NCBI GenBank assembly: GCA_963824205.1
Contig: CAWGOG010000004.1
Location: 149,934 to 213,933 of the forward strand
DNA: 64,000 bases
Direction: 5' to 3'
From: an uncultured Verrucomicrobiae bacterium
Lineage (GTDB): Bacteria; Verrucomicrobiota; Verrucomicrobiia; Chthoniobacterales; UBA10450
Part shown: positions 54,653-56,522 of the stretch, piece after piece
Numbering within the stretch: position 1 is the first letter of the stretch
Layout: every line of letters begins with the position of its first letter
Program-made: the position numbers and the translations under genes
Notes under the pieces: generated by a model
The model's database searches: none
What the model was told of the DNA's origin: nothing
What the model saw: only the letters and a program-made list of their open reading frames with translations

Positions 54653-56217
54653 TTTACGGAGAGTTTGATTCTGGCTCAGAACGAACGCTGGCGGCGTGGA
54701 TAAGACATGCAAGTCGAACGAGAACTTCAGCTGTAGCAATACAATTGAAGTTTTAGTGGCGAACGGGTGCGTAACACGTGGGCAATCTGCCGAGAAGTGG
54801 GGGATAGCTCGCCGAAAGGCGAATTAATACCGCATATGATCAGGGAAGACATCTTTCCAACATTAAAGCCGGGGCAACCTGGCGCTTCTTGATGAGCCCG
54901 CGGCCTATCAGCTAGTTGGTGAGGTAACGGCTCACCAAGGCTTTGACGGGTAGCTGGTCTGAGAGGACGACCAGTCACACTGGAACTGAGACACGGTCCA
55001 GACACCTACGGGTGGCAGCAGTCGAGAATTTTTCTCAATGGGGGAAACCCTGAAGGAGCGACGCCGCGTGGAGGATGAAGGTCTTCGGGTTGTAAACTCC
55101 TGTCATTTGGGAACAAGGTGCACGTATTTACTGTGCGTGTATTGATAGTACCAGAAGAGGAAGAGACGGCTAACTCTGTGCCAGCAGCCGCGGTAATACA
55201 GAGGTCTCAAGCGTTGTTCGGATTCATTGGGCGTAAAGGGTGCGTAGGTGGCGCCGTAAGTCAGGTGTGAAATTTCGGGGCTTAACTCCGAAACTGCATT
55301 TGATACTGCGGTGCTTGAGGACTGGAGAGGAGACTGGAATTTACGGTGTAGCAGTGAAATGCGTAGAGATCGTAAGGAAGACCAGTGGCGAAGGCGGGTC
55401 TCTGGACAGTTCCTGACACTGAGGCACGAAGGCCAGGGGAGCAAACGGGATTAGATACCCCGGTAGTCCTGGCAGTAAACGGTGCACGTTTGGTGTGGGG
55501 GGATTCGACCCCTTCTGCGCCGGAGCTAACGCGTTAAACGTGCCGCCTGGGGAGTACGGTCGCAAGATTAAAACTCAAAGAAATTGACGGGGGCCCGCAC
55601 AAGCGGTGGAGTATGTGGCTTAATTCGATGCAACGCGAAGAACCTTACCTGGCCTTGACATGCATCTCTAAGTTGGTGAAAGCCAGCGAGTCTCGAAAGA
55701 GACAATTTGCACAGGTGCTGCATGGCTGTCGTCAGCTCGTGTCGTGAGATGTTGGGTTAAGTCCCGCAACGAGCGCAACCCTTGTGAACTGTTGCCACTC
55801 CCTTTGTTGGGAAGCACTCTGTTCAGACTGCCCTGTGAAACGGGGAGGAAGGTGAGGATGACGTCAAGTCAGTATGGCCCTTACGGCCAGGGCTGCACAC
55901 GTACTACAATGCCCAGTACAGAACGATCCGAGACCGCAAGGTGGAGGAAATCTAGTCAAAACTGGGCCCAGTTCGGATTGGAGTCTGCAACTCGACTCCA
56001 TGAAGCCGGAATCGCTAGTAATGCCGTATCAGCTACGACGGCGTGAATACGTTCCCGGGCCTTGTACACACCGCCCGTCACATCATGGAAGTTGTTTGTA
56101 GCCGAAGTCGGCGTGCCAACCCGCAAGGGACGCAGCCGCCTACGCTATGAGCAGTAACTGGGATGAAGTCGTAACAAGGTAGCCGTAGGGGAACCTGCGG
56201 CTGGATCACCTCCTTTC
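54653..56217 (+). rRNA. rrs: 16S ribosomal RNA (Verrucomicrobiota-like)
   Basis: The gene begins AGAGTTTGATTCTGGCTCAG at 54660. It contains CCTACGGGTGGCAGCAG, GTGCCAGCAGCCGCGGTAATAC, GGATTAGATACCC and TTGTACACACCGCCCGTCA. It ends at the anti-SD GGATCACCTCCTTTCT at 56201-56216. Confidence 0.95.
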
Positions 56218-56318
56218 TAAGGAGAATTCATTGCCCTTCTCGAGCTTCGGCTCGGCAAGAGGCGGTTGAATAGGTCGACGGCTAAGTCCGATCTTTTCAG
56301 ATGCTCACCAAGTTCCTC

Positions 56319-56368
56319 GTAGGGGAAGTAGTTAGTTAGTTGGAAGACAAGCAGAGCGCTTCCCCTAC
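56319..56368. repeat. REP-like hairpin (gtaggggaag - 30 nt loop - cttcccctac) in the 16S 3' trailer
   Basis: A 10-bp perfect inverted repeat shares the GTAGGGGAAG core with the elements at 6264-6324 and 56845-56870. Confidence 0.5.
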
Positions 56369-56490
56369 CAGGACAAGGGCATTTGGGATGATCGGATATG
56401 CCGTGAAGACTTTGGAATCGAAAGAAACCAGAGCTCAAGGAAAACGACGTGGTAACGCACAATTCAGTCTTTGCTGCAAACATCGATAAA

Positions 56491-56522
56491 ATGCCGATCC
56501 CTGATGGGGTCGGCATTTTTGT
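56491..56522 (+). terminator. Rho-independent terminator downstream of 16S (atgccgatcc-ctgat-ggggtcggcat + TTTTT)
   Basis: The stem has 10 of 11 paired bases and is followed by tttttgttg. It lies about 275 nt after the 16S 3' end. No tRNA or 23S lies between them. Confidence 0.6.

Follow-up and report, generated by a model that had tools for sequence, protein, structure and literature searches.

A 16S rRNA gene unlinked from 23S and followed by a clade-wide conserved terminator in a member of the Chthoniobacterales

We analysed a 64-kb stretch of DNA (64,000 nucleotides, nt; called the window below) on contig CAWGOG010000004.1 of an uncultured Verrucomicrobiae bacterium, which carries a 16S ribosomal RNA (rRNA) gene standing apart from any 23S rRNA gene. 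The whole window was scanned with Rfam at gathering thresholds, with ARAGORN for transfer RNAs (tRNAs) and with Pfam for proteins. Rfam gave two matches in all 64 kb, the 16S gene and one tRNA at 60337-60409, both on the plus strand. The 16S gene is full length and occupies 54653-56216 (RF00177, SSU_rRNA_bacteria, 1510.5 bits, model positions 1-1533); the initial annotation of this DNA had put its end at about 56217. It is 94-99.6% identical to 16S genes of metagenome-assembled genomes (MAGs) of Chthoniobacterales, and its score of 1510 bits lies within the range of its relatives (1482-1520 bits in Rfam). No large-subunit (LSU) or 5S rRNA was matched by Rfam in the window, which covers 7.8 kb downstream and 54.6 kb upstream of the 16S gene, and the earlier claim that no 23S gene lies within 7.8 kb was thus confirmed. 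The sole tRNA that ARAGORN found in the window is tRNA-Ala(tgc). As had been described, it is the only tRNA near the 16S gene and is followed by a C1 peptidase gene and not by 23S (ARAGORN, Rfam, Pfam). Brewer et al. (bioRxiv 10.1101/705046) defined unlinked rRNA genes as those with more than 1500 bp between 16S and 23S, and with no 23S gene in the 1500 bp after it the 16S gene of the window is unlinked in their sense.

A predicted intrinsic terminator closes the 16S unit at 56488-56524 on the plus strand, with a hairpin at 56488-56519, a G+C-rich core at 56493-56514 and a T-run from 56516. The sequence after the 16S gene at this place is AAAATGCCGATCCC-TGAT-GGGGTCGGCATTTTTGTTG, in which the flanking A and T runs form the outer pairs of the hairpin, and the T-run that follows the plus-strand hairpin is TTTTTGTTG. 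RNAfold gave a hairpin of 14 pairs for the plus strand of 56486-56526 (-23.4 kcal/mol, z = -6.4), and 200 dinucleotide shuffles gave no fold as stable. The minus strand also folds (-19.2 kcal/mol, z = -6.1) and is then followed by only four Ts. A consensus terminator scan with a simple pattern did not list the hairpin at 56491-56522; we did not count this miss against the terminator because the folding test and the covariation test described below are direct.

To gather relatives we used a 44-nt pattern from a 16S rRNA helix that is more conserved, and it matched 30 loci. The exact 48-nt V2 pattern of the window's 16S had no match in representative genomes, so the species of the window is absent from those genomes. 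Except for one short contig in an Armatimonadetes bin (L021), the 30 loci belong to MAGs labelled Chthoniobacterales, Verrucomicrobiae or Spartobacteria, and many of them are on long-read contigs of 0.3-4 Mb. Their 16S identity to the window ranges from 88 to 99.6%: 99.6% in L025, 97.4% in L006, 94-96% in most loci and 88-89% in L007, L028 and L029. The organism of the window is a member of the order Chthoniobacterales (Verrucomicrobiota). One locus, L017, has about 100 extra nt at about 5396-5496, near 16S position 220; BLAST splits its match there into 1-219 and 228-1564, and its Rfam 16S match exceeds those of the other loci by about 90 nt. This extra stretch may be an intervening sequence in the 16S gene.

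Both linked and unlinked rRNA genes occur among the relatives. The distant relatives L028 and L029 have the canonical order 16S, tRNA-Ala(tgc), tRNA-Ile(gat), 23S by Rfam and ARAGORN. None of the 12 clade relatives with 2.4-6.4 kb of downstream sequence has a 23S gene after 16S. Upstream of 16S, 14 further loci, of which L007 and L011 are distant, carry no rRNA or tRNA in 2.8-7.2 kb (5.6-7.2 kb in 13 of these loci). A pattern for the 23S 5' end, derived from the linked loci L028 and L029, was run against metagenome contigs and gave 35 of them (L031-L065), and all of those with enough upstream sequence are linked operons. Sixteen of the metagenome contigs span the 16S end, tRNA-Ala, tRNA-Ile and the 23S start. 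In these contigs tRNA-Ala precedes tRNA-Ile, whereas the usual bacterial order is Ile-Ala. The 16S genes of these linked metagenome relatives are 86-93% identical to that of the window over long alignments.

A neighbour-joining tree on 16S positions 500-1564 grouped the window with the 18 loci that share its terminator into a single clade of 19, and all nine linked relatives fell outside it. Each clade genome matched the 16S pattern once, including a complete chromosome of 4.02 Mb (OZ244652.1), and one linked species matched it twice. The single match per clade genome fits a single-copy, and hence functional, 16S gene. The unlinked trait is a property of a coherent phylogenetic cluster and not of one odd assembly.

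At the corresponding site, each of the 19 loci in the unlinked clade has a hairpin with a T-run, with folding energies from -16 to -25 kcal/mol, and no terminator is present at this site in the linked L028 and L029. The exact terminator sequence of the window had no match in metagenome contigs. The gap between the 3' strand of the 16S processing helix (described below) and the terminator is ten bases in the window, 15-30 nt in other clade loci and about 80 nt in L006. We aligned 16 distinct versions of the terminator for covariation. In this alignment 95.5% of the cells are paired, and both sides have changed in six of the ten stem pairs, for example at the stem base (U-A/A-U/G-C) and at pair 6 (G-C/A-U). 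Covariation scored 0.39, compared with 0.14 in shuffles (none of 500 reached 0.39) and at most 0.10 when the partners were slid. The presence throughout the clade together with the covariation means that the terminator is a selected feature of the clade and not a chance hairpin. Judged from these aligned sequences, the hairpin and T-run are under purifying and compensatory selection, and transcripts probably end at 56488-56524. The initial annotation had called a good rho-independent terminator at 56491-56522, and this call is borne out by the folding (z = -6.4), by the 19 of 19 loci and by the covariation.

The 16S gene is also enclosed by two complementary strands of a processing helix. The 5' (leader) strand lies at 54377-54444 and the 3' (trailer) strand at 56416-56477, both on the plus strand. 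The core strands, 54377-54405 (GTCAGCGAAAATTGAATTGTGCGTTACCA) and 56450-56477 (TGGTAACGCACAATTCAGTCTTTGCTGC), are complementary, and so are the distal strands at 54432-54444 and 56416-56429. The leader/trailer duplex has an energy of -64.8 kcal/mol, against -33.0 +/- 4.9 kcal/mol for 200 shuffled trailers. The leader core GAATTGTGCG is present in 28 of 28 leaders, linked relatives among them, and the trailer core CGCACAATTCAG is kept in every relative that has a trailer, whether linked or unlinked. In the trailer strand at 56416-56477, the 5' part of the former 16S-23S spacer survives. In the bacteria that have been studied, a leader/trailer helix around the 16S precursor is the substrate of RNase III, and the helix of the window would likewise be a candidate for RNase III cleavage.

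Upstream of the helix, the 16S leader contains one promoter-like site on the plus strand, TTGACA-N16-TATCTT at 54112-54139 (10/12 in a sigma-70-type scan), which is a probable rRNA promoter. A TTGACR-N16-18-TAnnnT site occurs at the equivalent place, 430-640 nt upstream of 16S, in 23 of 28 leaders. Between this site and the helix lies GATCTTTGACA at 54278-54288 on the plus strand, a match to the motif GATCTTTGAnA, which was found in 24 of the 28 leaders, each time some 150 nt past the promoter-like site. We liken this motif to what we take to be the Escherichia coli boxA consensus, TGCTCTTTAACAA, and regard it as a boxA-like element, a putative rrn antitermination signal. The linked relatives (L028, L029, L031-L065) have a second boxA-like motif, GGTTCTTTGACATCT, between tRNA-Ile and 23S.

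The tRNA-Ala(UGC) at 60337-60409 on the plus strand, called by both ARAGORN and Rfam, is a displaced spacer tRNA. Over its 73 nt it does not differ from the tRNA-Ala found after 16S, on the same strand, in eight relatives, and every linked relative has tRNA-Ala(tgc) as its first spacer tRNA. From this identity and from the order in the linked relatives it follows that the tRNA-Ala of the window is the old first spacer tRNA and not there by coincidence. The distance from 16S to tRNA-Ala is 281 nt in L002 and 299 nt in L005, 318 nt in L012 and 368 nt in L019 (both then with tRNA-Ile), about 1450 nt in L013, L018 and L023, 2652 nt in L026, 3050 nt in L022 and 4120 nt in the window. The 16S gene had been described as without spacer tRNAs; this is right for the transcription unit but not for the locus, as the tRNA-Ala 4.1 kb downstream is the displaced one. 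A different layout was seen in L010 (1-5512), where tRNA-Ala lies downstream of 16S but on the opposite strand and a homologue of the C1 peptidase lies upstream of 16S, which suggests that the surroundings of the rRNA gene were locally inverted or transposed.

The interval between terminator and tRNA-Ala holds protein genes. In the window these are a TPR-repeat gene at 56864-57842 and a gene for an MFS/sugar transporter at 58019-59482 (Pfam Sugar_tr 6.9e-44, MFS_1 8.4e-33), both on the minus strand and inserted between terminator and tRNA. Pfam here agrees with the initial annotation, which had listed minus-strand TPR-like and MFS genes after the terminator. The TPR gene is convergent with 16S and frameshifted: it consists of two overlapping open reading frames (ORFs), 56864-57553 and 57318-57842, both with Pfam TPR matches. 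Its homologue in L006 is intact, one ORF of 300-400 amino acids, and aligns to the window in two frames with a switch near 57336-57340. Either the gene has become a pseudogene or its split reflects an indel error in a long-read assembly. L006 has a homologue of the MFS gene at the same place, with 80% identity, so that the order 16S, TPR, MFS is common to the window and L006, an independent MAG from another sample. A small plus-strand ORF at 59751-60248 was missing from the initial annotation. In the other loci the interval is occupied by a dockerin-like protein (L013, L018, L023), by a Sel1-repeat protein and an unknown protein (L026) or by an MacB/FtsX permease (L022). The genes between terminator and tRNA are thus unrelated from lineage to lineage, with at least five contents among the loci.

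Taken together, we consider that the 16S gene of the window is a self-contained transcription unit, in a clade whose ancestor split the rRNA operon after the 16S stem, with a probability of roughly 85%. Five elements would make up the unit, namely a promoter, a boxA-like element, the processing helix of leader and trailer, the 16S gene and the terminator. What the data show directly is the gene content, the helix, the terminator with its covariation, the grouping in a single clade, the identity of the tRNA and the different inserts. The claim of a stand-alone, unlinked unit in the initial annotation is supported by the clade-wide terminator (19 of 19 loci, with covariation) and by the shared gene order in L006.

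The simplest history is as follows. The ancestor would have had the order 16S, Ala, Ile, 23S; then the 23S gene was split off, and behind the 16S stem a terminator appeared. In the present unit the sigma-70-type promoter at 54112-54139 would start a leader of about 540 nt that includes the boxA-like element and the 5' strand of the helix. With the 3' strand kept 200-260 nt past the 16S end, pre-16S should still be excisable through a duplex of the type cut by RNase III, and the terminator at 56488-56524 would end the 16S transcript. The minus-strand hairpin with its four Ts might also stop transcripts of the convergent TPR and MFS genes. These two genes were presumably inserted between terminator and tRNA-Ala in the lineage of the window and L006, and the inserts in this interval appear to be independent in several lineages. 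The 23S and 5S genes would have to be transcribed from another locus. It may further be that the terminator arose only once, in the clade ancestor, and fixed the split while the helix was kept, that the interval is a recurrent insertion site and that the tRNA of the window has also gained RtT-like repeats of its own 3' end. We see the chances of this fuller history as even. If it is true, a terminator of single origin with recurrent insertion would give a stepwise, datable model of rRNA operon break-up in a free-living bacterium.

Several points weigh against a closed, separate 16S unit. Promoter use, pre-16S cleavage and termination are predictions from sequence. The 23S-5S locus of the unlinked clade was not found by the 23S-pattern scan of metagenome contigs. 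Antitermination complexes of the rrn type might lower termination at the hairpin, and read-through may be normal in those relatives that have tRNA-Ala next to the terminator and no canonical promoter in front of it.

We weighed three other explanations. The gene may be a redundant or decaying orphan 16S beside a complete linked operon elsewhere in a 'mixed' genome. The 64 kb is only part of the genome, and genomes with both linked and unlinked copies were reported by Brewer et al. (bioRxiv 10.1101/705046). We nevertheless regard this as unlikely. The 16S gene of the window scores as well as those of its relatives, and conservation extends to its promoter-like site, its boxA-like element, its processing helix and its terminator. 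Also, the 16S pattern was found once in each clade genome, the complete chromosome included, and twice in the linked species.

The terminator could instead be leaky, acting as an attenuator or processing signal, with read-through that feeds tRNA-Ala or a distant 23S gene. This explanation draws on L002, L005, L012 and L019, where tRNA-Ala follows the terminator on the same strand after 50-150 nt that contain no obvious TTGACA/TAnnnT promoter, and on the plausibility of boxA-type antitermination. In E. coli, rrn antitermination acts mainly on Rho-dependent and not on intrinsic termination, and the hairpin with its T-run is strong and under the selection described above. In the window, a read-through transcript would have to cross 3 kb of two convergent protein genes in antisense to arrive at the tRNA; since two convergent genes follow and there is no 23S gene within 7.8 kb, read-through to a distant 23S is implausible here. 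A leaky terminator is therefore very unlikely for the window. The same four loci share a conserved motif, CGACATTCGnnATT, some 12 nt before the tRNA-Ala that directly follows the terminator, with TTGCAT or TTGCAA about 18 nt above it in three of the four. This pair of motifs may be an unusual tRNA promoter; CGACATTCGnnATT is not present upstream of the tRNA-Ala of the window.

An assembly artefact, that is a chimeric contig or collapsed repeat in a genome that truly has 16S-tRNA-tRNA-23S, is hardly credible: rRNA genes are classic points of misassembly and the frameshifted TPR gene suggests sequencing errors of the indel type, but the spacer does not break at the 16S end and runs through the strand of the processing stem into a terminator found also in 18 other, separately assembled genomes, the order 16S, TPR, MFS recurs in L006, which comes from another sample, L025 with 99.6% 16S identity has the same leader, and many relatives are long contigs of 0.3-4 Mb.

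The proposed self-contained 16S unit can be compared with known systems. Classic split rRNA operons, as in Thermus thermophilus, Rickettsia, Helicobacter, Borrelia and Planctomycetes, are of low copy number and are linked to slow growth; the window is like them in having 16S alone, with 23S-5S presumably elsewhere. In the rrnB operon of E. coli there are P1 and P2 promoters, boxA antitermination, an RNase III stem and the T1 terminator. The window has the same order of probable promoter, putative boxA-like element, 5' stem strand, 16S and 3' stem strand and a predicted end of the same intrinsic type, but its terminator comes right after the 16S stem and not after 5S. With the 16S unit closed by a conserved terminator, the output of 16S and 23S would have to be balanced in trans.

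The nearest known case is Candidatus Udaeobacter (Ca. Udaeobacter, DA101 group), where unlinked rRNA genes were found in 80 of 80 long reads assigned to this genus and as a coherent phylogenetic cluster (bioRxiv 10.1101/705046). At that time no complete verrucomicrobial genome showed unlinked rRNA genes (bioRxiv 10.1101/705046). NCBI places Ca. Udaeobacter in the Chthoniobacterales, the same order as the window, so the likeness of the two, which share the same unlinking, is set at the level of order. The preprint reportedly appeared later in the ISME Journal. The initial annotation had presented the unlinked arrangement as noteworthy; it is real but not novel, as it was already reported for the Ca. 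Udaeobacter/DA101 group, and our additions are modest refinements. Brewer et al. classified their reads by distance only, whereas we work out how the unit is built and what became of the spacer tRNA; the main text of their preprint (bioRxiv 10.1101/705046) does not mention terminators and mentions a promoter once, in the introduction. The retained processing helix, the clade-wide covarying terminator and the displaced spacer tRNA are newly described here. In the same preprint (bioRxiv 10.1101/705046) unlinking was associated with the loss of RNase III. In contrast to the picture of RNase III loss, the leader/trailer helix is fully retained in the window, and unlinking need not be accompanied by loss of this processing helix. 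In the clade the operon is broken after the 16S processing stem and before the first spacer tRNA, and tRNA-Ala stays near while 23S does not.

The current understanding of unlinked rRNA genes is not overturned by these results. The graded distances of tRNA-Ala (adjacent, 1.4, 2.7, 3.0 and 4.1 kb) provide a natural history of operon break-up. There is also a practical side: long-amplicon methods that span 16S, the internal transcribed spacer (ITS) and 23S will overlook these abundant soil Verrucomicrobia, which will also be absent from databases built on operons.

The tRNA-Ala of the window is followed by a tandem repeat of 169 nt in 2.6 copies at 60394-60814 on the plus strand (Tandem Repeats Finder score 679, 87% matches). 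The repeat starts inside the 3' end of the tRNA, and CCCTTGCCTCCA recurs at about 60560 and about 60730. Each unit also has GGGGGCG...TGCCTCCA, from which an acceptor-like helix with a pair of the G3:U70 type could form. No second copy of the tRNA 3' end was seen in the other loci compared. We considered the units as tRNA-like pseudogenes and rejected this, as ARAGORN did not call them and they fold no better than shuffles (z = -1.1 and -0.7). They were also rejected as RtT RNA (RF00391), with 18.8 bits against a gathering threshold of 45 and E = 4, which is at chance level. The likeness to tyrT-RtT of E. coli, in which a tRNA is followed by tandem repeats of about 170 nt each with a tRNA 3' end, is one of layout only; the tRNA is a different one there, and the repeats of the window have no Rfam support.

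Two further genes lie beyond the repeat on the plus strand, the C1 (papain-family) peptidase at 60879-61661, which follows tRNA-Ala, and a large TPR protein at 61737-63425, both by Pfam. Neither recurs after the tRNA in any relative; L002 has a pyridoxal phosphate (PLP)-dependent enzyme after the tRNA and L012 an NAD kinase.

Just after the terminator there is an AGGAA-rich stretch at 56535-56650 on the plus strand (e.g. CAATTAGGAAGCCAGGA...CAATTAGGAACCCAGGAAAGCAGGAA), the sole place in the 64 kb with at least five AGGAA per 120 nt. By eye, AGGAAGC motifs resembling those of the window follow the terminators of L006, L010 and L017.

On the upstream side, the segment of the window at 50-54 kb is without a counterpart in L025, where homologues of the window genes at 47132-49708 lie much nearer to 16S. 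An ORF at 50202-51179 on the plus strand, 3.5 kb upstream of 16S, encodes collagen triple-helix repeats (Pfam PF01391, 2.1e-15).

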